A stretch of DNA of 11,750 bases from a virus (IMGVR_UViG_2585427760_000003), one strand, 5' to 3'; positions 300 to 11,750 are shown, counted from the stretch's first letter. A program made the numbers and translations. The notes: generated by a model from the sequence alone, not told the origin.

Positions 300-693
300 G
301 CGTTTCGCTGGGAAAAAACGTGTATCCGGAGAGGATCATCTGAACGGCATGAAAAATATCATTCTGATCATTGCATTTACTGACAAAACCGTTAGCACCA
401 GCTTGTATCGCTCTGCCAGCATAAAAGCATTCTGATTTCGATGATAAAAATAACACTTTCACTGTGCTCTGGATTTGTTTGATCCTTTTCAGGAAGGTAA
501 AACCGTCTGTTCCGGGCAAGTCTATATCCATAATGATTAAATCAACAGGACGGGTTCGGAGATAATCGATGGTTATGCGGTAATCATCCGTTTTCAGGAC
601 AATCTGCAATTCACTGTTTTTTTGCAACAGAACTTCAATAGACATTCTGATGATAGGATGAGTATCCATAATGATCACCGACGTTGGTTTCAT
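295..693 (-). pseudogene. fimZ: fimZ response regulator (LuxR family), 3'-truncated by the IS1 insertion; encodes receiver domain only and loses the C-terminal HTH
   Basis: Minus-strand translation MKPTSVIIMDTHPIIRMSIEVLLQKNSELQIVLKTDDYRITIDYLRTRPVDLIIMDIDLPGTDGFTFLKRIK...SGYTFFPSET matches E. coli FimZ residues 1-131 from memory; the frame then reads R and a TAA stop (295-297) supplied by the IS1 end instead of native ...LNYIKSN. Upstream in-frame Met at 756 is probably not the start. Confidence 0.85.
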
Positions 694-935
694 AGTTACC
701 AGTCTCATAGGAGCGGACAATTTTCCGTTAGGGCGGTAAATTGTACTTTGATACATGAAAATACGGGTTTTCTTGATTCAGACGCGCAGCGATGTGCATT
801 TGTTTGCCGCTATAGCGAAATAAATCAGAAAATCAGACGCGGTCGTTCACTTGTTCAGCAACCAGATCAAAAGCCATTGACTCAGCAAGGGTTGACCGTA
901 TAATTCACGCGATTACACCGCATTGCGGTATCAAC

Positions 936-1012
936 GCGCCCTTAGCTCAGTTGGATAGAGCAACGACCTTCTAAGTCGTGGGCCGCAGGTTCGAATCCTG
1001 CAGGGCGCGCCA
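936..1012 (+). tRNA. argU: tRNA-Arg (anticodon UCU)
   Basis: 77-nt cloverleaf GCGCCCTTAGCTCAGTTGGATAGAGCAACGACCTTCTAAGTCGTGGGCCGCAGGTTCGAATCCTGCAGGGCGCGCCA; acceptor stem GCGCCCT/AGGGCGC, anticodon loop CTTCTAA with TCT at 970-972, T-loop GTTCGAATC, 3' CCA. Confidence 0.95.
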
Positions 1013-1027
1013 TTACAATTCAATCAG

Positions 1028-2191
1028 TTACGCCTTCTTTATATCCTCCATAATTCCAGAGTGGGACATATTTGGGACATTATCACCAAAAATGTCGTCT
1101 ATTTTCCTCGCATGCTCTGTCAAATGATTAGGCGCAAGGTGAGCATACCTACGAACCATTTCTATGGACTCCCATCCGCCCATTTCCTGAAGCACTGATA
1201 ATGGGACGCCTGACTGAATCAGCCAGCTTGCCCAGGTGTGTCTGAGGTCATGGAAACGGAAATCTTCAATTCCTGCACGACGACAAGCTGATAGCCATGA
1301 TGTCTTGCTGTCGATGCGCATCTTCCTGACCGCAGGCGTTGATGTTCCATCTGCTCGCTTAGCCGCCTTGGTATGTACAAACACCCATTTGTGATGCTTG
1401 CCTATTTGATCACGCAACACTTTACAGGCGGTATCGTTCAGCGCCACACCAATGGCGCGGTTTGATTTGCTCTCTTCTGGATTCACCCAGGCAACTCGTC
1501 GCTGCATGTCGATTTGTTGCCATTCCAGATTTATGATGTTCGACTTTCTCAGACCAGTTGCCAGCGCAAACTTGACGACAGATTTCAGTGGTTCGGGGCA
1601 CTCATCAATAAGGCGTTTTGCTTCCTCCTTTTCCAGCCATCTGACTCGCTTGTTTCTGACCGCTGGTATCTTGATGACAGGCGCTTTTTCCAGCCACTTC
1701 CAGTCGCGTTCTGCAGCACGGAGAATGGCCTTTATCATGGCAAGATGCTTTGCCTTTGTCTGAGTTGATACTGGCTTTGGTTCATAAACAGGCAGTTCTT
1801 TACCTTTCCTGATGGCGGCCTGAACTTTCTGTTTCCATATTTCTTTCGTCTTTCTGTTATGCATTCTGCTTACAGCAGAGTAAATCTTTGCCTCCGAGAT
1901 ATCTTTAAGCCTTATACCCTCAAAATGTTCAAGCCAGAACTCAATCCGGCTTTTATCTGAATCGAGAGATTTTTTATCAGCTTTTTCCTCAAGCCATCTT
2001 AGGCAGGCCTCTTCAAAAGTGACATCAGGTAAATCCCCTAGCTTTTCTACTCGCCAGAGTTCTGCTTTTCGCTTGTCGTGCAACTCCTGAGCTTGCCGCT
2101 TGTCCTTTGTGCCAAGAGATTCCTTAATTCGTTTCCCGCCCGGGAGCGAATACGAGGCATACCATATTTCATTTCTGCGGAAGAGTGACAT
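1028..2191 (-). CDS. intD: Prophage integrase, tyrosine recombinase family (DLP12 IntD-like), 387 aa
   Basis: 387-aa minus-strand ORF immediately adjacent to the tRNA 3' end; C-terminal catalytic region with [11 protein letters not shown] and VRRYAHL (catalytic Tyr) motifs; N-terminus [35 protein letters not shown]. Confidence 0.93.
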
Positions 2192-2418
2192 TTTCTTTCC
2201 TCTGTTATGCCATCACCCGCGCTCACCTGGACAGTATGCAGCGGAGACTGAAGCGCCGCAATGCAGGCTTGCCGTGTTGTGAGGTAAGGAGATTTTGGCT
2301 TGGTTGGATCTTTACGTGTTGCCTGTAGGCGGCCTGTTCGTATCCAGTTGGTGGCGGTTGGTCTGGATATCTTAAGAAACTGACAGGCCTCATCGAGTGT
2401 GAGGCTGTATGATTCCAT
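2047..2418 (-). CDS. Excisionase-like HTH protein (AlpA/Xis family); ORF is unusually long (123 codons) and overlaps the integrase start by 145 nt, so the 3' extension may not be genuine
   Basis: ATG at 2418-2416 preceded by GAGGT SD; N-terminal [31 protein letters not shown] resembles the HTH of AlpA-type excisionases; position directly upstream of int. Confidence 0.6.
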
Positions 2419-2668
2419 GGTTACCTCTGCTTTTTGAACGCATGTCACGTAACTTCTTAATGTGTTCTGCCGTTTCGATCTCTTCTGCTATCCGATCTGC
2501 ATCAGCTTTATTCACAGGTTCAAAGTCATGATTAAAGCGGAACATGCTGGCGATACATGTTCTGCCTTTTCGGATGTAGTGAACTTTGTTGTGGGTAGAA
2601 CGCAGGATTTTGCAGGGAGTGCCGTGGTGGTCGACGTACCAGGTGTTAGGAAAAATGATTCTGAACAT
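2390..2668 (-). CDS. Hypothetical protein, 92 aa (no family recognised)
   Basis: ORF with GAGGTG SD 5 nt upstream of ATG at 2668; codirectional with and between the TraR-like gene and xis; overlaps the xis start by 29 nt. Confidence 0.5.
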   Translation of the reverse strand: MFRIIFPNTWYVDHHGTPCKILRSTHNKVHYIRKGRTCIASMFRFNHDFEPVNKADADRIAEEIETAEHIKKLRDMRSKSRGNHGIIQPHTR

Positions 2669-2715
2669 TTTTACACCTCAGTTGGACGATGTTGAAATTT
2701 GCTGCTTTGAGGCCA

Positions 2716-2934
2716 TCACAGTCCCCATTGTTTGTTCTTAAGTTCGATCTCCTCCTGGCAACTCGCACAAGTCCGACAACCCTGAACAGCCAGGCGTCTT
2801 CGCTCATCTATCGGATCGCCACACTCACAACAATGAGTTGCGGATACAGTCTGGTAGTTCAGACGACGCATTTTTATTGCTGTATTGCGCTGTAATTCTT
2901 CGATTTCTGATGCTGAATCAATGATGTCTGCCAT
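2716..2934 (-). CDS. TraR/DksA-family C4-type zinc-finger protein, 72 aa
   Basis: Translation contains CECGDPIDERRRLAVQGCRTCASCQ, matching the TraR/DksA signature (compare F-plasmid TraR CEACGNPIPEARRKIFPGVTLCVECQ from memory). Confidence 0.75.
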   Translation of the reverse strand: MADIIDSASEIEELQRNTAIKMRRLNYQTVSATHCCECGDPIDERRRLAVQGCRTCASCQEEIELKNKQWGL

Positions 2935-2985
2935 CTTTCATTAATCCCTGAATTGTTGGTTAATACGCTTGAGGGTAAATGCGAA

Positions 2986-3011
2986 TAATAAAAAAGGAGC
3001 CTGTAGCTCCC
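2986..3011 (-). terminator. Candidate rho-independent terminator or attenuator on the minus strand, upstream of the TraR-like gene
   Basis: Minus-strand RNA GGGAGC-UACAG-GCUCCU followed by UUUUUUAUUAUU; short stem (5-6 bp), so weak; lies inside a 29-codon minus-strand ORF (2941-3030). Confidence 0.4.
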
Positions 3012-3161
3012 TGATGATTTTGCTTTTCATGTTCACCGTTCCTTAAAGACGCCGTTCAACATGCCGATCGCCATGCTTAAATGAGTCGGTGTGAATCCCA
3101 TCAGCGTTACCGTTTCGCGGTGCTTCTTTAGTATCTGGCTGAAAGAGGGGGTTATTAAGGC

Positions 3162-3524
3162 GTGAATACCTACAGCATCACATTACCCTGGCCTCCGAGC
3201 AATAATCGCTATTACCGCCATAATCGCGGGCGCACGCACGTCAGCGCAGAGGGGCAGGCATACCGCGATAACGTCGCCCGAATCATTAAAAACGCAATGC
3301 TGGATATCGGCCTGGCTATGCCTGTGAAAATCCGCATTGAGTGCCACATGCCGGATCGCCGTCGCCGTGACCTGGATAATCTGCAAAAAGCCGCTTTTGA
3401 CGCACTCACTAAAGCAGGTTTCTGGCTGGATGATGCTCAGGTCGTTGATTACCGCGTTGTGAAGATGCCTGTTACCAAAGGTGGGAGGCTGGAACTGACC
3501 ATCACCGAAATGGGGAATGAATGA
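3162..3524 (+). CDS. rusA: Holliday-junction resolvase RusA (crossover junction endodeoxyribonuclease), 120 aa, GTG start
   Basis: Translation [120 protein letters not shown] matches E. coli RusA from memory. Confidence 0.93.
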
Positions 3525-3661
3525 TGTTTGAGTTTTATATGGCAGAACTTCTTCGCCACCGCTGGGGGCATCTGCGCTTATATCGTTTCCCCGGTTCTGT
3601 TTTGACCGATTACCGAATACTGAAGAGTTACGCCAAAACCCTGACAGGAGCAGGAGTATGA
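3521..3661 (+). CDS. ylcG: Small nin-region protein YlcG-like, 46 aa
   Basis: ATG overlaps the rusA stop (ATGA); translation [46 protein letters not shown]; below the 60-aa ORF-track cutoff, identified by hand translation and synteny between rusA and quuD. Confidence 0.75.
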
Positions 3662-3746
3662 AGTCAGAGATAACAATCAACTAATACTGTTTTGTTGATT
3701 TTTGCTTGTAATTGGCGTTTTGGTCTGATTTTTGTGGAGTAAGTTG

Positions 3747-4130
3747 ATGCGTGATATTCAGATGGTTCTTGAGCGTTGGGGAGCGTGGGCGGCTAATAAT
3801 CATGAAGATGTGACCTGGTCGTCCATTGCCGCCGGTTTTAAGGGATTAATTCCTTCAAAAGTAAAATCTCGCCCGCAATGTTGTGACGATGACGCGATGA
3901 TCATTTGCGGGTGCATGGCCCGTCTGAAAAAGAACAACAGCGATTTGCACGATTTATTAGTAGATTATTATATAGTCGGTATGACATTCATGTCACTGGC
4001 AGGTAAGCATTGCTGCTCTGATGGTTATATCGGGAAAAGGTTACAAAAGGCTGAGGGCATAATTGAAGGGATGTTAATGGCATTAGATATCCGGTTAGAG
4101 ATGGATATCGTTGTTAATAACTCTAATTAA
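3747..4130 (+). CDS. quuD: Late-gene antiterminator Q homolog (phage-82-type Q, DLP12 QuuD), 127 aa
   Basis: [67 protein letters not shown]...; ATG at 3747 with GGAG SD at 3736-3739; the ORF track starts at an upstream TTG (3732), which I consider less likely. Confidence 0.88.
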
Positions 4131-4150
4131 TACGCCAATTATTTACTAAA

Positions 4151-4181
4151 AGTTATTAAAAATGGGGCGTTGAAGCGCCCC
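4151..4181 (-). terminator. Rho-independent terminator on minus strand (GC-rich hairpin plus U-tract), likely ending the nmpC transcript
   Basis: GGGGCG (4164-4169) / CGCCCC (4176-4181) stem with 6-nt loop; on the minus strand it is followed by AUUUUUAAUAACU. On the plus strand it is followed by an A-run, so it is not a plus-strand terminator. Confidence 0.6.
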
Positions 4182-4318
4182 CAAAAATAAAGGGTAATAT
4201 ATAACAGAAGGTTTGTATAGTTAGAAGCAAGGTTGTGCTTCTAAAGGAAGTGGCTTGAGGGAGCCACTTATATGTTGGGGAGGCAAAGCCTCCCACAACA
4301 TATCTTTTAGTAATCAAA

Positions 4319-5401
4319 TTAGAACTGGTAAACCATACCTACAGCAACGATATCATCGGTAGCAACGCCAGATGCTTTCGTGAAATCGCTCTTATCAATC
4401 AGGTTGATTTTGTAGTCAACAAAAGTGGACATATTTTTGTTGAAGTAATAGGTTGCACCTACATCAACATATTCAACCAGGTCCTGATCACCCCAAACAC
4501 CCAAGTCTTTTCCTTTAGAATGCAGGTAAGCAACGGATGGACGCAGGCCGAAGTCGAACTGATATTGTGCAACAGCTTCGAAGTTTTGTGCTTTGTTGGC
4601 AATATGGTTATTACCAAAAACAGTCATGTTCTGGGTTTCAGAATAGGTGGTGGCCAGATAGATGTTGTTCGCATCATATTTCAGACCAGCTGCCCATACT
4701 TCAGCATTTTGACCAGAAGCATTCAGACCGTTGTTACCGTAGATAACCTGATTATTAGTGCGATCAGATTTAGCATAGGTTGCACCCACGCCGAATCCTT
4801 CATACTCATAAGTAGTTGAGAAACCGAAACCATCGCCATTAGCTTCAGTTACTTCATTTCGGTCATTTTTGCCCTGATACTGAGCTGCAAAGTTCAGGCC
4901 ATCAACCAGACCAAAGAAGTCGTTGTTACGATAAGTTGCAACACCTGTGGTGCGACCAGTCATGAACACATCTGTTTGGGTCCAGGTATCGCCACCGAAT
5001 TCTGGCAGAACGTCAGTCCACGCACCGATGTCGTATGCTACACCGTAGTTACGGCCGTAATCGATTGAGCCGTAGTCACCGAATTTCAGGCCAGCGAAGG
5101 CAAGACGGGTTTTATCTTTGGAGGAACCTTGAGATTCAGCGCGGTTGCCTTTGAATTCATATTCCCACTGACCGAAACCAGTCAGTTGATCGTTGATTTG
5201 GGTTTCACCTTTGAAGCCAAGACGGGCATAAGTAGTATCACCATCATCTGCATCATTAGAGGAGAAGTAGTGCTTAGCATTAACTTTCCCGTACAGATCC
5301 AGCTTGTTACTGTCTTTATTATAAATTTCAGCTGCCTGAGCAGACATCGCCATCAGTACTGATGCAGCTACAGCAGAAATTGCCACTGTTAATTTTTTCA
5401 T
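4319..5401 (-). CDS. nmpC: Outer-membrane general porin NmpC (OmpC/OmpF/PhoE family), apparently intact, 360 aa
   Basis: Signal peptide [23 protein letters not shown] then [16 protein letters not shown]; porin motifs throughout; C-terminal ...VGMVYQF typical of beta-barrel porins; placed on the opposite strand between Q and the lysis genes as in DLP12. Confidence 0.9.
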
Positions 5402-5829
5402 CGTGAGCCCTTTTTTTTGAACTATTATTAAAAAATGATGTCACTGCGCGATAAATATTCATCTAATCAATGTGATTATTTCAAGATGTAAGTTTTGGTT
5501 TCTCGTTTAATTTGTGAAGTAGATCTCTATTTTTATCTGAACTTTTTTCTATCGAATCCTATTCATGGCTCTTGGCTGAATAAAAATAAATCTATTAGCC
5601 AATTTATATTAATGGCTGTTATTTATAAGTGCTCTATAATTTGAAGGTTCAATTTAAATTGGCTAAAAATAACGCTGGAAATTATTTGTTGGTTATTTGT
5701 TGAGATTTTCTTATGTATTTGTAGTGGTGTTTTCAATACTCGGTAGCATTCTCGCAAATATCATTTAGTGGTTTACGTACGTAAAAAATTGGTTATGCTG
5801 TTAAGAGTGGTTACTTCGTTACACAGCTT

Positions 5830-5862
5830 AAACCCGCCGTCGAGCGGGTTTTTCCATTTTTT
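5830..5862 (+). terminator. Rho-independent terminator upstream of essD; candidate tR'-like terminator of a short late-promoter transcript
   Basis: AACCCGC (5831-5837) / GCGGGTT (5844-5850) stem, 6-nt loop, followed by TTTCCATTTTTT; sits ~110 bp upstream of the holin start. Confidence 0.55.
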
Positions 5863-5974
5863 GAGTCTCGATATTAGCTGATAACCCAATACCTGAGTTA
5901 TTCACTGACTCCGAGTCTGTTACGTTTCGTAGTATTCCCTCAATTTACACCCGCTTTGTCTGCGAGGTGGGGTT

Positions 5975-6190
5975 ATGAAATCCATGGATAAGTTAACAAC
6001 GGGTGTCGCCTATGGCACCTCAGCAGGTAGTGCCGGGTACTGGTTTTTACAGCTGCTCGATAAAGTCACGCCCTCACAGTGGGCAGCAATAGGTGTGCTG
6101 GGTAGCCTGGTATTTGGCCTGCTGACGTACCTGACAAACCTTTATTTCAAGATTAAAGAAGATAAGCGCAAGGCTGCGAGAGGTGAATAA
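5975..6190 (+). CDS. essD: Phage-21-type class II holin (pinholin S21 homolog) with dual-start motif, 71 aa
   Basis: [71 protein letters not shown]; two TM segments; Met1 and Met4 (5975 and 5984) give the holin/antiholin dual start; GAGGTGG SD upstream. Confidence 0.9.
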
Positions 6191-6687
6191 TGCCTCCATC
6201 ATTACGAAAAGCTGTTGCTGCTGCTATTGGTGGCGGGGCTATTGCTATAGCATCTGTGTTAATCACTGGCCCAAGTGGTAACGATGGTCTGGAAGGTGTG
6301 AGACATAATCCTTACAAAGACATAGTTGGTGTATGGACTGTATGTTACGGGCATACAGGAAAAGACATCATTCCCGGTAAAACGTATACCGAAGCAGAGT
6401 GCAAAGCCCTCCTGAATAAAGACCTTGCCACTGTCGCCAGACAAATTAACCGGTACATCAAAGTCGATATACCGGAAACAACGCGCGGCGCTCTTTACTC
6501 GTTCGTCTACAACGTGGGTGCTGGCAATTTCAGAACATCGACGCTTCTTCGCAAAATAAACCAGGGTGATATTAAAGGCGCATGTGATCAGCTACGGCGC
6601 TGGACATACGCTGGCGGTAATCAATGGAAAGGACTGATGACTCGCCGTGAGATTGAGCGTGAAGTCTGTTTGTGGGGGAAACAATGA
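6190..6687 (+). CDS. rrrD: SAR endolysin (T4-lysozyme-like muramidase with N-terminal signal-anchor-release domain), 165 aa
   Basis: N-terminal Gly/Ala-rich hydrophobic SAR segment [20 protein letters not shown] followed by lysozyme catalytic region [23 protein letters not shown]; start overlaps the essD stop (TAATG). Confidence 0.9.
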
Positions 6688-7142
6688 GCAGAGTAACCGC
6701 GATTATCTCCGCTCTGGTTATCTGCATCATCGTCTGCCTGTCATTGGCTGTTAATCATTACCGTGATAACGCAATCGCCTACAAAGAGCAGCGCGATAAC
6801 AAGGCCAGTGAACTGGAGAAGGCGAACGCCACCATCGCTGACATGCGGAAGCGTCAACGTGATGTAGCAGAACTCGACGCAAGATACACAAAGGAGCTTG
6901 CTGATGCTAACGCGACTATCGAAAGTCTCCGTGCTGATGTTTCTGCTGGGCGTAAGCGCCTGCAAGTCGCCGCCACCTGTGCAAAGTCAACGACCGGAGC
7001 CAGCGGCATGGGCGATGGAGAAAGCCCAGGACTTACAGCAGATGCTGAACTCAATTATTACCGTCTCCGAAGTGGAATCGACAAGATAACCGCGCAGGTT
7101 AACTACCTGCAGGAATACATCAGGACGCAATGCCTGAAATAA
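6684..7142 (+). CDS. rzpD: Spanin inner-membrane subunit Rz (i-spanin), 152 aa
   Basis: ATG overlaps the rrrD stop (ATGA); N-terminal TM segment [20 protein letters not shown] then coiled-coil-like periplasmic domain; ORF track starts at an upstream GTG (6672). Confidence 0.85.
6904..7089 (+). CDS. rzoD: Spanin outer-membrane lipoprotein subunit Rz1 (o-spanin), embedded in the +1 frame of rzpD, 61 aa
   Basis: AAGGAG SD at 6891-6896, ATG at 6904; lipoprotein signal [20 protein letters not shown] with lipobox Cys, proline-rich mature region [13 protein letters not shown]; fully nested inside rzpD. Confidence 0.75.
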
Positions 7143-7174
7143 TTTTTTTGCAAATCACAAAGTCCATTTAATGA

Positions 7175-7198
7175 GCCTCGCGATGCGGGGCTTTTTTT
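7175..7198 (+). terminator. Rho-independent terminator after the lysis cassette
   Basis: GCCTCGC-GAT-GCGGGGC stem-loop (7 bp including one G-U) followed by TTTTTTT, ~33 bp downstream of the rzpD stop. Confidence 0.65.
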
Positions 7199-7437
7199 AC
7201 ATCTGAATTTCACAGCGCATCTCACGCGCATATTACATCACCCGAGCCTTTCAGAAAGTTGAGCCTGAGAACTGCCGTATATGGTGGCGACCATCTCGGG
7301 GCGGCTTTTCTGTGAGACAGGCTCACTTTCTAAAAGGTAAAGACGCTATGAACCAATTAGAAGAAAAGCTTCAAAGAATGATTTCCTTATACAAGGAAGA
7401 TAACTGCCAAAAAGTTCCTTAAAACATCGCAGAGTTA

Positions 7438-7836
7438 ATGGAATTGGCAAGTGAATTTTCTGGCATGCTTAAGTCGTCAGGTGTTCGGTCAGCGTTCTTT
7501 GTTGAAATGCTGATGCACGGCGGACTTATGGCAACAATGAGACGTGTAATGGAAGACCAGAGAAAAGAACCTCCTCAGGTATACGTTTTGTCATCGAAGA
7601 AAACTGGGCTAACCAAAATTGGGTATTCATCCAACATTCCACAACGCATCAAATCGCTTGGCAACTCTGGACCAGACTGCTTGAAGCTTGAGTGCCTGAT
7701 CCCTGGTGGAAGAGAAACTGAAAACATGCTTCATCGCAAATTTGCCGCAAAGAGAAAGCACGGTGAATGGTTCGCCCTGTCCAAGGATGACATTGAGGGA
7801 TTGAAATCTGTAGCGATTACTTCTGATGGCTATTAA
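7438..7836 (+). CDS. T5orf172 / GIY-YIG-like domain protein, 132 aa (cargo gene at the position occupied by bor in lambda)
   Basis: C-terminal ~85 residues QVYVLSSKKTGLTKIGYSSNIPQRIKSLGNSGPDCLKLECLIPGGRETENMLHRKFAAKRKHGEWFALSKDDIEGL fit the T5orf172 pattern as I recall it (YVL...KIGYT/S...R...EWF); weak SD; an upstream in-frame 24-codon ORF (7348-7422) is separated by a single TAA. Confidence 0.6.
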   Translation: MELASEFSGMLKSSGVRSAFFVEMLMHGGLMATMRRVMEDQRKEPPQVYVLSSKKTGLTKIGYSSNIPQRIKSLGNSGPDCLKLECLIPGGRETENMLHRKFAAKRKHGEWFALSKDDIEGLKSVAITSDGY

Positions 7837-8514
7837 TGCTTGTTTAGAGCAATTTTCATAACAACTCTTCATTACAAAGCCCATCTACTGGTGGGCTTGA
7901 TAATGAAACCGTGATTTACATCCCCACAATCCGGGTATGTAAAAGATAGTTCAGGCGAGAACGGATTTAACTAAATCTGTGCGCCACCAGTTAACGGCAG
8001 TACCACGAAACAACCCAAGCCAGTAAGTGGGGAAATAACACCGGCAGCCACTGAAAGATGAACCTCCTGCCTTATGGCAAAAAAGATTCTTTGTGGTGGC
8101 GGACTGATGGAAAGACATCCTAATTTCAGCCAAACATTGAAGGAGTTGTTATGTCAGCAGAAGGTTTCAATAACCCATCAAAATTCCGGGATGAGTGGGA
8201 TAGCAGCGTAAAGAGTAAGTGATGCCATCACAAAAGCCATTCCCTACAGAGTGGCTTTGATAATGGCTTATACCCTACACGGGATAACTTAACTGATATC
8301 CTTTTTAAAGGATAAAGGTATTCAAGCCTGACACATCATGCGCTGTATCGTCGCCGTATTCCCGTATTAACAGAGACCGTAGCCCGACGGGGAACTCCTT
8401 CTGCGCGAGTGTGCGGGAATAATCAAAAACGATGCACACCGGGGTTACCGGGTACACATATTTCATCATGCCAGCGAGTCCGGTTCTGGCACGGAAGAAA
8501 CCGGACGTTATGAT

Positions 8515-8925
8515 TTAGTGCGGAAATATTTGTGTAGTGTTCTGAATGTTCTCAGTAAAGAGTAATGAATTATCAAAGGTATAGTAATACCTTTTGTTTT
8601 CGTGGATATTTGTAATCCATCTGAAAACCCCTGCTGTAGCAAGATTTTTCCTGTATTCGTAAAATGATAACTCTCCTGATTTGAATCCTTTTAATGTGGT
8701 TTCTATAAGGCATTTATTTTTTGAAAATCTTACATTTACAACCTTACCCTGTCCTTTTATTAAAACCGTATTATCGTTTTCAAGAACAAGATGAATATTC
8801 TCTGTGGCTAAATAGTAAATGTAATGTGAGACATTGTGACGTTTTAGTTCAGAATAAAACCAGTGATAGTTTAAATTATTTCGCACTTTATCGAATATTT
8901 GTTTAAAAATGGCAACCTGAGCCAT
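8515..8925 (-). CDS. Hypothetical AT-rich protein, 136 aa, no signal peptide or TM segment; possibly equivalent to the protein annotated in K-12 DLP12 as YbcV (recollection, unverified)
   Basis: Minus-strand ORF in a visibly AT-rich segment; likely start at the second Met (8925, GGAAGG-like SD 7 nt upstream) giving [31 protein letters not shown]...; Tyr/Asn-rich, soluble-looking. Confidence 0.6.
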
Positions 8926-8982
8926 TGTAGTACCTTCCATGTGATATGAAGGTACCTAGTCTGCACGATTATCTAAATTGCT

Positions 8983-9216
8983 TCAATCTGGTCTGACCTG
9001 CTTTCTGAGCAATTCAGTAATGTCACTCTTTTCTTTGTTTGCTTCAGGCGAAACTCTTTTTTCTGAGCACAGTCTTCGGCGGCAGGCTTCAATGACCCAG
9101 GCTGAGAAATTCCCGGACCCTTTTTGATCAAGAGCGATGTTAATTTGTTCAATCATTTGGTTAGGAAAGCGGATGTTGCGGGTTGTTGTTCTGCGGGTTC
9201 TGTTCTTCGTTGACAT
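8983..9216 (-). CDS. Small putative ribbon-helix-helix (CopG/Arc-like) DNA-binding protein, 77 aa
   Basis: Basic N-terminus MSTKNRTRRTTTRNIRFPNQMIEQINIALDQKGSGNFSAWVIEACRRRL fits a beta-strand/helix/helix RHH layout; codirectional with and 57 bp upstream of the 136-aa gene; ~200 bp from cosN. Confidence 0.5.
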   Translation of the reverse strand: MSTKNRTRRTTTRNIRFPNQMIEQINIALDQKGSGNFSAWVIEACRRRLCSEKRVSPEANKEKSDITELLRKQVRPD

Positions 9217-9359
9217 GAGGTTGTCCCGTATTCAGTGTCGCTGATTTGTATTGTCTGAAGTTGTTTTTACGTTAAGTTGATGCAGATCAATTAATATGAT
9301 ACCTGCGTCATAATTGATTATTTGACGTGGTTTGATGGCGTAGATGCACGTTGTGACAT

Positions 9360-9604
9360 GCAGATGATAATTATTATCATTTTGCGGGTCCTTTCCGGCG
9401 ATCCGACAGGTTACGGGGCGGCGACCTCGCGGGTTTTCGCTATTTATGAAAATTTTCCGGTTTAAGGCGTTTCCGTTCTTCTTCGTCGTAACTTAATGTT
9501 TTTATTTAAAATACCCCCTGAAAAGAAAGGAAACGACAGGTGCTGAAAACGAACTTTTGGGCCTTTGTCGTTTCCTTTCTCTGTTTTTGGCCGTGGAATG
9601 AACA
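9360..9604. other. Lambda-type cos site: cosQ/cosN/cosB, with the cosN 12-nt cohesive-end sequence GGGCGGCGACCT at 9416-9427
   Basis: 9380-9600 is near-identical to my recollection of the lambda genome left end and preceding right end (..GTTACG GGGCGGCGACCT CGCGGGTTTTCGCTATTTATGAAAATTTTCCGGTTTAAGGCG...); inverted Nu1-binding R-site-like repeats AGAAAGGAAACGACAG / CTGTCGTTTCCTTTCT at ~9523-9580. Confidence 0.85.
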
Positions 9605-10429
9605 ATGGAAGTCAACAAAAAGCAGCTGGCTGACATTTTCGGTGCGAGTATCCGTACCATTCAGAACTGGCAGGAACAGGGAATGCCCGTTCTGCGAGGC
9701 GGTGGCAAGGGTAATGAGGTGCTTTATGACTCTGCCGCCGTTATAAGATGGTATGCCGAAAGGGATGCTGAAATTGAGAACGAAAAGCTGCGCCGGGAAG
9801 TTGAAGAACTGCGGCAGGCCAGCGAGACAGATCTCCAGCCAGGGACTATTGAGTACGAACGCCATCGACTTACGCGTGCGCAGGCCGACGCACAGGAGCT
9901 GAAAAATGCCAGAGACTCCGCTGAAGTGGTGGAAACCGCATTCTGTACTTTCGTGCTGTCGCGGATCGCAGGTGAAATTGCCAGTATTCTCGACGGGATC
10001 CCCCTGTCGGTGCAGCGGCGTTTCCCGAACGGCACGGTCGATGTGTTCCGCGGCTGGGTCAGCAGTATCGGTAAGGCGGTGACGGCGAAGGAAGTGATTA
10101 CCCGCACGGTGAAAGTCACCAACGTAGGACGTCCGTCGATGGCAGAAGATCGCAGCACGGTAACAGCGGCAACCGGCATGACCGTGACGCCTGCCAGCAC
10201 CTCGGTGGTGAAAGGGCAGAGCACGACGCTGACCGTGGCATTCCAGCCGGAAGGCGCAACCGACAAGAGCTTCCGTGCGGTGTCTGCGGATAAAACAAAA
10301 GCCACCGTGTCGGTCAGTGGTATGACCATCACCGTGAAAGGTGTTGCTGCAGGCAAGGTCAACATTCCGGTCGTATCCGGTAATGGTGAGTTTGCTGCGG
10401 TTGCAGAAATCAACGTCACCGCCAGTTAA
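9605..10429 (+). CDS. nohD: Chimeric ORF: terminase small subunit Nu1 homolog (residues ~1-140) fused in frame to the C-terminal Ig-like (Big_2) domain of major tail protein V; 274 aa
   Basis: [46 protein letters not shown]...[14 protein letters not shown] matches lambda Nu1; from ...[60 protein letters not shown]... to ...AEINVTAS matches the lambda gpV C-terminus from memory; switch at ~10018-10027 within shared CGTTTCCCG. The nohD symbol applies to the Nu1-like part only. Confidence 0.85.
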
Positions 10430-10444
10430 TCCGGAGAGTCAGCG

Positions 10445-10795
10445 ATGTTCCTGAAAACCGAATCATTTGAACATAACGGTGTGACCGTCACGCTTTCTGA
10501 ACTGTCAGCCCTGCAGCGTATTGAGCATCTCGCCCTGATGAAACGACAGGCAGAACAGGCGGAGTCAGACAGCAACCGGAAGTTTACTGTGGAAGACGCC
10601 ATCAGAACCGGCGCTTTTGTGGTGGCGATGTCCCTGTGGCATAACCATCCGCAGAAGACAAAGCTGCCTTCTATGAATGAATTGGTGCTCATACGCACTC
10701 CGTTGCGATTGGTTCACATGGACACACCATCACCGTTAACGCTGCTGGTAACGCGGAAAACACCGTCAAAAACATCGCATTTAACTATATTGTGA
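10445..10795 (+). pseudogene. Tail assembly chaperone G remnant (first ~79 codons) joined out of frame to the 3' end of a side tail fiber (stf) gene
   Basis: MFLKTESFEHNGVTVTLSELSALQRIEHLALMKRQAEQAESDSNRKFTVEDAIRTGAF..WHNHPQKT..PSMNE matches lambda gpG; from ~10681 a different frame reads [41 protein letters not shown] (stop 10804-10806), the His-x-His-rich C-terminus of Stf-type tail fibers. Confidence 0.8.
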
Positions 10796-10805
10796 GGCTT
10801 GCATA

Positions 10806-11390
10806 ATGGCATTCAGAATGAGTGAACAACCACGGACCATAAAAATTTATAATCTGCTGGCCGGAACTAATGAATTTATTGGTGAAGGTGATGCATATAT
10901 TCCGCCTCATACAGGTCTGCCAGCAAACAGTACCGATATTGCACCGCCAGATATTCCTGCTGGCTTTGTGGCTGTTTTCAACAGTGATGAGGCATCGTGG
11001 CATCTCGTTGAAGACCATCGGGGTAAAACGGTTTATGACGTAGCGTCAGGGGACGCGTTATTTATTTCTGAACTCGGTCCGTTACCGGAAAATGTTACCT
11101 GGTTATCGCCGGAAGGGGAGTTTCAGAAGTGGAACGGCACAGCCTGGGTGAAAGATGCAGAAGCAGAAAAACTGTTCCGGATCCGGGAGGCGGAAGAAAC
11201 AAAAAACAGCCTGATGCAGGTAGCCAGTGAGCATATTGCGCCACTTCAGGATGCTGTAGATCTGGAAATCGCAACGGAGGAAGAAACCTCATTGCTGGAA
11301 GCCTGGAAAAAGTATCGGGTGTTGCTGAACCGTGTTGATACATCAACTGCACCTGATATTGAGTGGCCTACGAACCCTGTCAGGGAGTAA
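10806..11390 (+). CDS. tfaD: Tail fiber assembly protein Tfa, 194 aa, intact
   Basis: [79 protein letters not shown]... is near-identical to lambda Tfa with scattered substitutions; ATG overlaps the stf-frame stop (TAATG). The tfaD symbol is by synteny with DLP12. Confidence 0.85.
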
Positions 11391-11444
11391 TCATTGGGAT
11401 TATGCCGCAGCACGTCTTAAGCAAGAACGTGCTGCGGTTGGATG

Positions 11445-11750
11445 CTATTTTTTCCCTGAAGCGGAAAACATTACTACAGTACCTTGAACCTTGGTTTTAA
11501 CATTCTCGAAATGCTCTGAGAGTATATGTGTTAAGCCTTCTTCGGAATCTTTTGTGTTTGAAAAGATGCCTTTCTGATTGTAAATGCGCATCAGTTTTTG
11601 ACCGAAGCTATTGTGCACAACTCCATCGCCAAGAATTGTGGCTCCGTATAGAGTTCCATCGTCAGTTAAGGCCTGCGCCGCATTGCGTATTACACAGCTT
11701 TTTGTAGATATATTTCCAGGCAGGCAGTGAAGAAGGTAAAACATGGAAAT
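11445..11750 (-). CDS. Hypothetical protein, C-terminal portion (5' end probably beyond the window edge)
   Basis: Minus-strand ORF open to the window edge (two further in-frame codons upstream of the ATG at 11744); no family recognised; position corresponds to the gene convergent with tfa in lambdoid prophages. Confidence 0.4.
   Translation of the reverse strand: MSMFYLLHCLPGNISTKSCVIRNAAQALTDDGTLYGATILGDGVVHNSFGQKLMRIYNQKGIFSNTKDSEEGLTHILSEHFENVKTKVQGTVVMFSASGKK

Follow-up and report, generated by a model that had tools for sequence, protein, structure and literature searches.

The locus examined here raises the question of whether an open reading frame (ORF) that begins as a phage packaging protein and ends as a phage tail protein is a by-product of prophage decay or a protein retained for a function of its own. 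The ORF occupies positions 9605-10429 on the plus strand of a DNA stretch of 11,750 nucleotides, hereafter the window; it starts with ATG and encodes 274 residues, in which residues 1-141 of the terminase small subunit Nu1 are joined in frame to residues 114-246 of the major tail protein V. The exact protein is already present in public databases. We conclude, with a probability of roughly 85%, that the fusion is a neutral decay scar in a prophage of the DLP12 family, without a selected function; as a sequence it is an ordinary, already deposited product of prophage decay.

The window holds a DLP12-type cryptic lambdoid prophage integrated at tRNA-Arg(argU) beside fimZ. Its left part comprises fimZ, the tRNA-Arg(tct) gene (936-1012), a gene for a 387-aa integrase, annotated as intD in loci identical to the window's, rusA, quuD, an intact porin gene of the OmpC/NmpC type and the lysis genes S/R/Rz. 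To their right lie a GIY-YIG/T5orf172 gene, a DUF1398 gene, ylcI, cos, the fusion ORF, a remnant of the chaperone gene G and tfa. The assignment to the DLP12 type rests on the late module rusA-quuD-porin-essD-rrrD-rzpD and on appY/ompT downstream. The cos site is intact from cosQ to cosB (9386-9585, plus strand), as seen in alignment with the lambda left end and with the prophage of Escherichia coli RM14723 described below, with cosQ (GGGTCCT) at 9386-9392 (+), the cohesive-end sequence GGGCGGCGACCT at 9416-9427 (+), window position 9416 aligning with lambda nt 1, and the cosB elements R3, R2 and R1 at about 9466-9582 (+), identical to those of lambda.

The DLP12 prophage of E. coli K-12 shares with the window the integration site, fimZ, tRNA-Arg, intD, rusA, quuD and the porin, and further essD-rrrD-rzpD, ylcI, a nu1 homologue, tfa, appY and ompT; as in DLP12 and Qin, head and tail genes have been lost through internal deletions. 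We take K-12 DLP12 to contain a full-length nohD, a break inside gene A (aaaD') and then a tfa remnant, whereas the window breaks inside nu1 and retains an island from V' to G'. Because the break points differ, the two prophages represent independent decay paths.

Within the fusion ORF, the nu1-derived segment spans 9605-10023 (+), corresponding to nu1 nt 1-419 and Nu1 residues 1-140/141, and is identical to nu1 of RM14723 up to 10023, the first mismatch falling at 10024. The V-derived segment follows at 10024-10429 (+), corresponding to V residues ~113-246, and V and G of RM14723 are 100% identical to the window over 651 nt to the right of the junction. At the protein level, NohD, the Nu1 homologue of RM14723, matches residues 1-141 of the fusion without a difference, and residues 111-246 of the RM14723 V protein match residues 139-274 in the same way, the tripeptide R-F-P being common to both parents. 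Alignment with lambda gives the same picture, the first 419 nt tracking nu1 with 8 substitutions and the sequence from 10022 on tracking V. The reading frame is continuous and free of ambiguous bases.

Domain searches resolve the same two halves. The winged-HTH DNA-binding domain of Nu1 lies at residues 1-68 (9605-9808, +; PDB 1J9I, E 9e-39), a second PDB sequence match covers residues 1-98 of TerS (6HN7_B), and the Pfam family Phage_Nu1 matches residues 1-145 (E 1e-88), its profile positions 149-164 being unmatched. The central self-association region (about residues 100-140) is kept, as residues 1-141 equal those of the parental NohD, and V sequence stands in place of Nu1 residues 142-181, so that the gpA-binding C-terminus is absent. 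On the other side of the junction, the C-terminal third of the tail-tube domain Phage_TTP_12 (profile positions 90-135 of 135) matches residues 135-180, the domain being incomplete since V residues 1-113 are deleted, and the Ig-like domain Big_2 matches residues 189-267 (nt 10169-10405, +; E 5e-20), in agreement with the PDB match of residues 186-274 to the C-terminal domain of gpV (2L04). The PHROGs matches agree with this Pfam picture. The original prediction, an in-frame chimera of a Nu1 front and a V back, thus holds, as does its proposal that the DNA-binding part was kept and the part predicted to contact the terminase large subunit (TerL) was lost; neither a C-terminal half of other origin nor a frame artefact is found. 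Its description of the V part as the Ig-like domain is correct for that domain and incomplete as a whole, for the last ~47 residues of the N-terminal tube domain precede it.

Public annotation splits or misnames this product. GenBank labels the whole ORF 'terminase small subunit', and RefSeq/PGAP divides it into a terminase-small-subunit pseudogene (9605-10099) and a separate, internally started 96-aa 'Ig-like domain-containing protein' (10139-10429; WP_375156540.1). Both should be corrected, the RefSeq pseudogene and spurious 96-aa ORF being parts of one ORF of 274 residues.

How the two halves came together is best read from a prophage in which they are still apart. When each flank of the junction was searched separately against 5,426 complete E. 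coli genomes, E. coli RM14723 (CP027103) proved to contain both, the left one at 99.9% and the right one at 100% identity, 8.7 kb apart, in an almost full-length prophage at the same fimZ-argU/appY locus. Its genes run nohD, A, W, portal, S49 protease, D, E, FI, FII, Z, U and V, followed by G, T, H, M, L, K, I, J, lom, stf and tfa. Measured against this prophage, the deletion is exactly 8,676 bp long, a multiple of 3, nu1 and V sharing a frame, and it takes out the 3' end of nu1, A, W, B, C/nu3, D, E, FI, FII, Z, U and V codons 1-113. The gene for the terminase large subunit, A, lies inside the deleted stretch, and no large-subunit ORF is found among the ORFs of the window. The annotated genes between the two breakpoints are exactly those that had been predicted to be lost in a single event, and the comparison shows that one deletion accounts for the chimera. 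In the int-rusA interval (window 2191-3162), immunity, replication and the nin region are also missing relative to RM14723, leaving only the genes for DUF4222 and TraR/DksA along with small remnants; intact copies of quuD, the porin gene and the lysis cassette remain.

A chimera of this kind could also arise by recombination between two lambdoid prophages or remnants, one contributing nu1 and the other V-G. E. coli genomes have 2 nu1-like places at the median and as many as 8, and lambdoid prophages recombine readily (PMC3945230), which gives the idea some footing; against it, both flanks match one prophage at the same locus, at 99.9% and 100% and in the right order and orientation, and the locus is otherwise colinear with DLP12-type prophages. 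We therefore regard a two-prophage origin as very improbable.

The junction itself, J1, can be placed to two nucleotides. Three-way comparison with nu1 and V of lambda and of RM14723 identifies the chimeric 9-mer CGTTTCCCG at 10019-10027 (+), where the parental 9-mers, alike in lambda and RM14723, are CGTTTTCCG in nu1 and CGCTTCCCG in V; over a longer stretch the sequences are GGCGTTTTCCGGAAC for nu1, TCCGCTTCCCGAACGG for V and GGCGTTTCCCGAACGG for the window. Since the T at 10021 is specific to nu1 and the C at 10024 is specific to V, the breakpoint alignment confines the crossover to the TT at 10022-10023, and this dinucleotide is the only exact overlap between the parents, set within an imperfect match of 7/9. 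The junction had been predicted at ~10018-10027, which is confirmed, and in a sequence common to both parents, which is not: as nu1 and V agree with each other at 7/9 positions only, CGTTTCCCG is the recombinant itself. In the same way, the label of a microhomology deletion stands for an overlap of 2 nt exact and 7/9 imperfect, not for a shared 9-mer. When junctions were simulated on the RM14723 prophage, 0.9% of the random pairs matched at 7/9 positions or better and 16% had 2 nt or more of exact overlap; between nu1 and V, 816 pairs of 9-mers reach 7/9 or better. The in-frame outcome follows from these similar 9-mers, which encode R-F-P in frame in both genes.

The junction also creates the string GGCGTTTCC at 10017-10025, which equals the first 9 nt of the cosB element R3 (9466-9474); intact nu1 holds the same string with one extra T. 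The identity may be coincidental, or possibly relevant to Nu1 binding there.

A second scar lies immediately downstream. The G remnant (10445-10795, +) consists of G codons 1-79/80, up to 10681, and then of the 3' end of the side-tail-fibre gene stf, read out of frame for 36-38 codons, and PGAP calls it a pseudogene. The junction between the two, J2, at 10681 (+), links G codon 80 to the stf 3' end with 1 nt of microhomology and out of frame, and spans 12,588 bp on RM14723, which serves as a proxy here, its stf/tfa being only 96% identical to the window's. The V'-G' island survives between J1 and J2, and an intact tail-fibre assembly gene, tfa, follows at 10806-11390 (+; Pfam Caudo_TAP and annotation). 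An out-of-frame J2 with a 1 nt overlap is what would be expected if the frames at such junctions were a matter of chance.

Whether other strains carry J1, a check proposed with the original prediction, has a clear answer: 2 of the 5,426 complete E. coli genomes have it, as do dozens of draft assemblies from E. coli and Shigella dysenteriae, and every carrier context examined is the same locus with an identical 50-nt junction. Over window positions 300-11750, E. coli 14EC033 (CP024147) and strain 100416 (CM128593) are 99.97-99.99% identical to the window, flanked by sfm/fimZ-argU on one side and appY-ompT-envY-nfrA on the other. An assembly or reading-frame artefact, for which we found no evidence, is practically negligible, given that the identical 50-nt junction occurs in the 2 complete genomes and in 6 other independent assemblies or contigs, including a metagenome contig, and that the frame is continuous. 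The window differs from both complete genomes at its left edge, where an IS1 fragment (1-301) abuts fimZ (295-693) and cuts off its 3' end; fimZ is intact in the two genomes, so the window must derive from a third strain closely related to them.

The window and the other carriers are separated by 1-22 SNPs over 10-11 kb, most of them in two patches at 2570-2856 and 7084-7130 (13 and 4 sites in loci L007/L009), which look like recombination tracts rather than clonal divergence. Between 7131 and 11543 no variable site is present among the carriers, and the population signal for or against selection on the fusion is likewise nil. The fusion allele is thus inherited in a small, nearly clonal lineage of E. 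coli and Shigella dysenteriae. The exact protein (e.g. AUJ95195.1) occurs on 69 contigs and is indexed in 173 blocks, and a T144K variant is named from Shigella dysenteriae; the other variants in the protein cluster carry single substitutions or lambda-like residues, the latter probably owed to other prophages or to assembly. Every carrier read, single-substitution variants included, has the ORF intact.

The fusion is also far from the only one of its kind. Dozens of further fusions of the Nu1 N-terminus emerged from a large protein search, with partner fragments from Lom, J, tail fibre, Tfa, U, FI, FII, capsid, portal, protease and integrase and, in many cases, with out-of-frame tails, which marks such fusions as a common outcome of prophage decay. 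One of them, P0011 (278 aa; locus L011, 6001-6837), unites Nu1 and V a second time, independently and in a different prophage: its C-terminus is the V Ig-like domain, as in the window fusion, and it differs in joining Nu1 residue 169 to V residue ~166 at a GAxxTGAT-type microhomology, instead of Nu1 141 to V 114. Most other Nu1 fusions break at Nu1 residues 168-170, in contrast to the class of the window, which breaks at 139-141. In P0098, a fusion of 189 aa that is probably NohA of Qin, Nu1 gives way to a tail-fibre gene at residue 176.

To compare these events at the nucleotide level, we mapped 63 distinct Nu1 fusions on parent DNA, defining each peak by the last retained nu1 base. About 10 distinct events, including the window, end at nu1 nt 417-421 (...GGCGTTTT^CCGGAA), so that this 5-nt stretch of nu1 is also where no fewer than 9 other deletions begin, independent of one another and with unrelated partners. 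A second and stronger peak, comprising about 40 distinct events in the protein collection, lies at nt 501-511 (...GAACTGATA^CCGGGG), centred on GATA^CCG at nu1 nt 504-510 (lambda nt 694-700; locus L004, 14166-14172), a site that is deleted in the window. Background between the peaks, over the rest of nt 415-543, is about 0.1 events per nt; the protein-level events listed cover Nu1 from about residue 139 on, and the region upstream was judged from a smaller DNA sample. Five of the nt 417-421 events were confirmed on DNA (the window and loci L163, L165, L167 and L169); they lie in different prophages, join nu1 to V, the portal start, J, Tfa and a tail-fibre gene, and exit nu1 at nt 419-421 with a T-rich overlap of 0-3 nt. 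In the window this site corresponds to 10017-10025 (nu1 nt 413-421), where the T-run GGCGTTTT lies just 5' of the palindrome TTCCGGAA and forms the 5' foot of that palindrome and of the hairpin TTTCC-GGAACT-GGAAA.

An ORF-independent check on 135 nu1 copies from IMG/VR reproduced the stronger peak, with 6 of about 14 within-nu1 deletion starts at nt 507-509, and contained no deletion at the window's site (nt 417-421) or at the CCGG of nt 189. Both of the two copies of GATACCG present in 3.4 kb of nu1-A are deletion starts, the second, inside gene A (L004 15737-15743; nu1-relative nt 2075-2081), by two independent IMG/VR events, at nt 2076 and 2078. The right ends of the nt 504-510 events fall anywhere from gene A to tfa and share only G-R-T-A (2-4 nt), that is, microhomology to the fixed left terminus. 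The clustering of deletion starts in nu1 is solid, and neither the fusion nor hot spots of deletion in nu1 were encountered in a search of the literature.

These starts suggest that similarity between nu1 and V was not what placed the break. Under this refinement of the decay scar, a site-specific lesion in nu1, be it a nick, a break or a replication block by a protein or hairpin, would have seeded the deletion, and the V endpoint would be the place where a fixed 3' end (...GGCGTTT) met 2 nt of microhomology. About 10 junctions at nt 417-421 over a background of about 0.1 events per nt, the unrelated partners of the five junctions checked on DNA, the T-run at the foot of TTCCGGAA, the stronger peak seen in both protein and IMG/VR data, the repeated hits on the other GATACCG and right ends sharing just 2-4 nt with the left terminus all argue for it. 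They are offset by the 7/9 similarity of nu1 and V, unusual enough at 0.9% of random pairs that homology may have contributed, by the 0 events at nt 417-421 among the 135 IMG/VR copies, by the position of this site at the edge of the listed protein range (~residue 139), and by three negative results, in that CCGG is not generally hot, no IS ends occur at the junctions and the stronger site has no convincing hairpin. We hold the odds of a seeding lesion to be about even; that nu1-V homology did not choose the left breakpoint is itself probable, since deletions recurrently start there. The broader proposal that the chimera is one visible product of an unrecognised, sequence-specific deletion-initiating process in nu1 of lambda-type prophages, with ends completed by 0-4 nt of microhomology, we advance only tentatively, at somewhat less than even odds. 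If correct, a fixed 3' end left by a nick, a break or a replication block would drive the loss of head and tail genes and spare cos and the DNA-binding part of TerS.

Several candidate determinants were considered and set aside. Both hot spots abut the only two CCGG sites in nt 415-543, but CCGG is not sufficient, as the CCGG at nt 189 is without events and the 32 CCGG sites in nu1-A are not generally hit. A former IS insertion followed by a flanking deletion of the IS-excision-enhancer (IEE) type (PMC9943667) finds no IS end at any junction, and the right sides that had been unmapped proved to be tail-fibre genes. Hairpin stalling would be plausible at the window's site, and only weak structure is predicted at the stronger one. 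The search for a right-end consensus of a recombinase or transposase yielded G-R-T-A alone, explained by microhomology to the left terminus. By eye, the break positions did not fit Chi-like octamers, cosN-like half sites, invertase (gix/hix) quasi-sites or phiX gpA-origin-like sequence.

Taken as a decay scar, the fusion formed when one illegitimate-recombination event, probably seeded by a local, sequence-dependent break or replication stall, cut out 8,676 bp and linked nu1 codon 140 to V codon 112. The seeded end would have been completed by minimal microhomology wherever it landed, in this case the TT within the 7/9 match encoding R-F-P in both genes, which kept the frame. The predicted product is Nu1(1-141), with its cosB-binding winged HTH and self-association region and without the gpA-binding tail, followed by a V tube fragment of ~47 residues that is presumably unfoldable and by a complete Big_2 domain. 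The allele would persist because it is neutral, and it travels with the G'::'stf deletion and with the loss of immunity and replication functions.

Not every observation sits easily with a scar. Besides the intact ORF in every carrier read, the lambda nu1 start region is kept directly downstream of an intact cos, and an intact quuD and lysis cassette lie upstream of the fusion ORF. Comparison with the parental proteins indicates what such a product might still do. Residues 1-141 differ from lambda gpNu1 at K48R, A75T and L132I only, and the fusion shares with gpNu1 and NohD/NohA (PF07471) the winged HTH, the self-association region and the place directly after cos; it differs from gpNu1 in lacking residues 142-181, which bind gpA (PMC9026076), in having no large-subunit gene next to it and in carrying 133 foreign C-terminal residues. 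Its residues 142-274 equal gpV 114-246 with a complete Big_2 domain (PDB 2L04), and it differs from gpV in lacking residues 1-113, about two thirds of the tube-forming domain, from which we judge that it cannot serve as a tail-tube subunit. In lambda TerS, a winged-HTH dimer at the N-terminus and a central domain for oligomerisation are followed by ~40 protease-sensitive C-terminal residues, which bind TerL (PMC9026076; PMC9611059). Expression and DNA binding of the fusion are possible and, judged from its sequence, the protein, if made, could bind cosB and pair with Nu1 and would not recruit gpA.

These properties invite the alternative that the fusion is a domesticated TerS decoy, expressed and lowering the packaging of infecting or co-resident lambda-type phages, by occupying cosB or by forming mixed dimers with phage Nu1 while itself lacking the gpA-binding tail, by analogy with the Rpp proteins of PICIs. 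The deletion has kept exactly the DNA-binding and self-association parts of TerS, without the ~40 residues that bind TerL. Rpp proteins, at 135-153 aa, are near the Nu1 part in size, combine a winged HTH with a helical dimeriser, lack a TerL-binding domain, are encoded directly after cos and block helper packaging by binding TerS (PMC9026076); here cos and the R sites are intact, and nu1 of K-12 DLP12 is functional in lambda (PMC3945230). The likeness, however, is one of architecture. No Rpp chain was matched at E<=0.001 in the PDB sequence search, the structure of RppC with TerS (6HN7) being matched through its TerS chain only, and the fusion further differs from Rpp in its V-derived tail, in a specificity that would be for lambda cosB and not for a PICI site, and in the absence of an island context. 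A mixed dimer would still bind lambda cosB and have one gpA-binding tail, so interference would not be guaranteed. The rarity of the allele (2/5,426 complete genomes, one near-clonal lineage), the absence of a selection signal over the invariant 7131-11543, the out-of-frame scar at the neighbouring J2 and the many Nu1 fusions with random out-of-frame tails, which point to a mutational and not a selective origin, also speak against a decoy. We consider it unlikely, and the neutral scar remains our reading.

Two further searches bear on the fusion ORF. PADLOC, which likewise weighs against a decoy, returned only a 55-residue generic HTH match to mad1 (E 2e-11), with no other MADS components nearby, and promoter-like sites number 3 against 1.7 +/- 1.1 expected, which is not above chance, the sole upstream one lying in cosQ DNA.

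By itself the fusion matters little; with the undeleted parent available for comparison, it records how the head genes were lost at a single stroke, in a remnant where cos is intact and the surviving TerS fragment is built like a PICI Rpp interference protein. The recurrent, nucleotide-precise deletion starts in nu1 are the one thing worth following up. If they reflect nicking or stalling, they would explain why so many E. coli remnants retain cos and the 5' part of nu1 (the noh genes) but nothing beyond, and would offer a defined substrate for illegitimate recombination in vivo.

Two neighbouring gene arrangements were observed in passing. The GIY-YIG/T5orf172 (MUG113) nuclease-family gene at 7438-7836, between Rz and cos, occupies a place held by iss/bor in RM14723, is missing from other prophages broken at the same nu1 site and has a weak PADLOC match to the candidate PDC-S57 (E 4e-6). 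In locus L163 (3001-5600), a Nu1(1-139)::portal-start fusion is followed directly by an integrase-AlpA-Bro-N module, which looks like a satellite or integrative element within the portal remnant.
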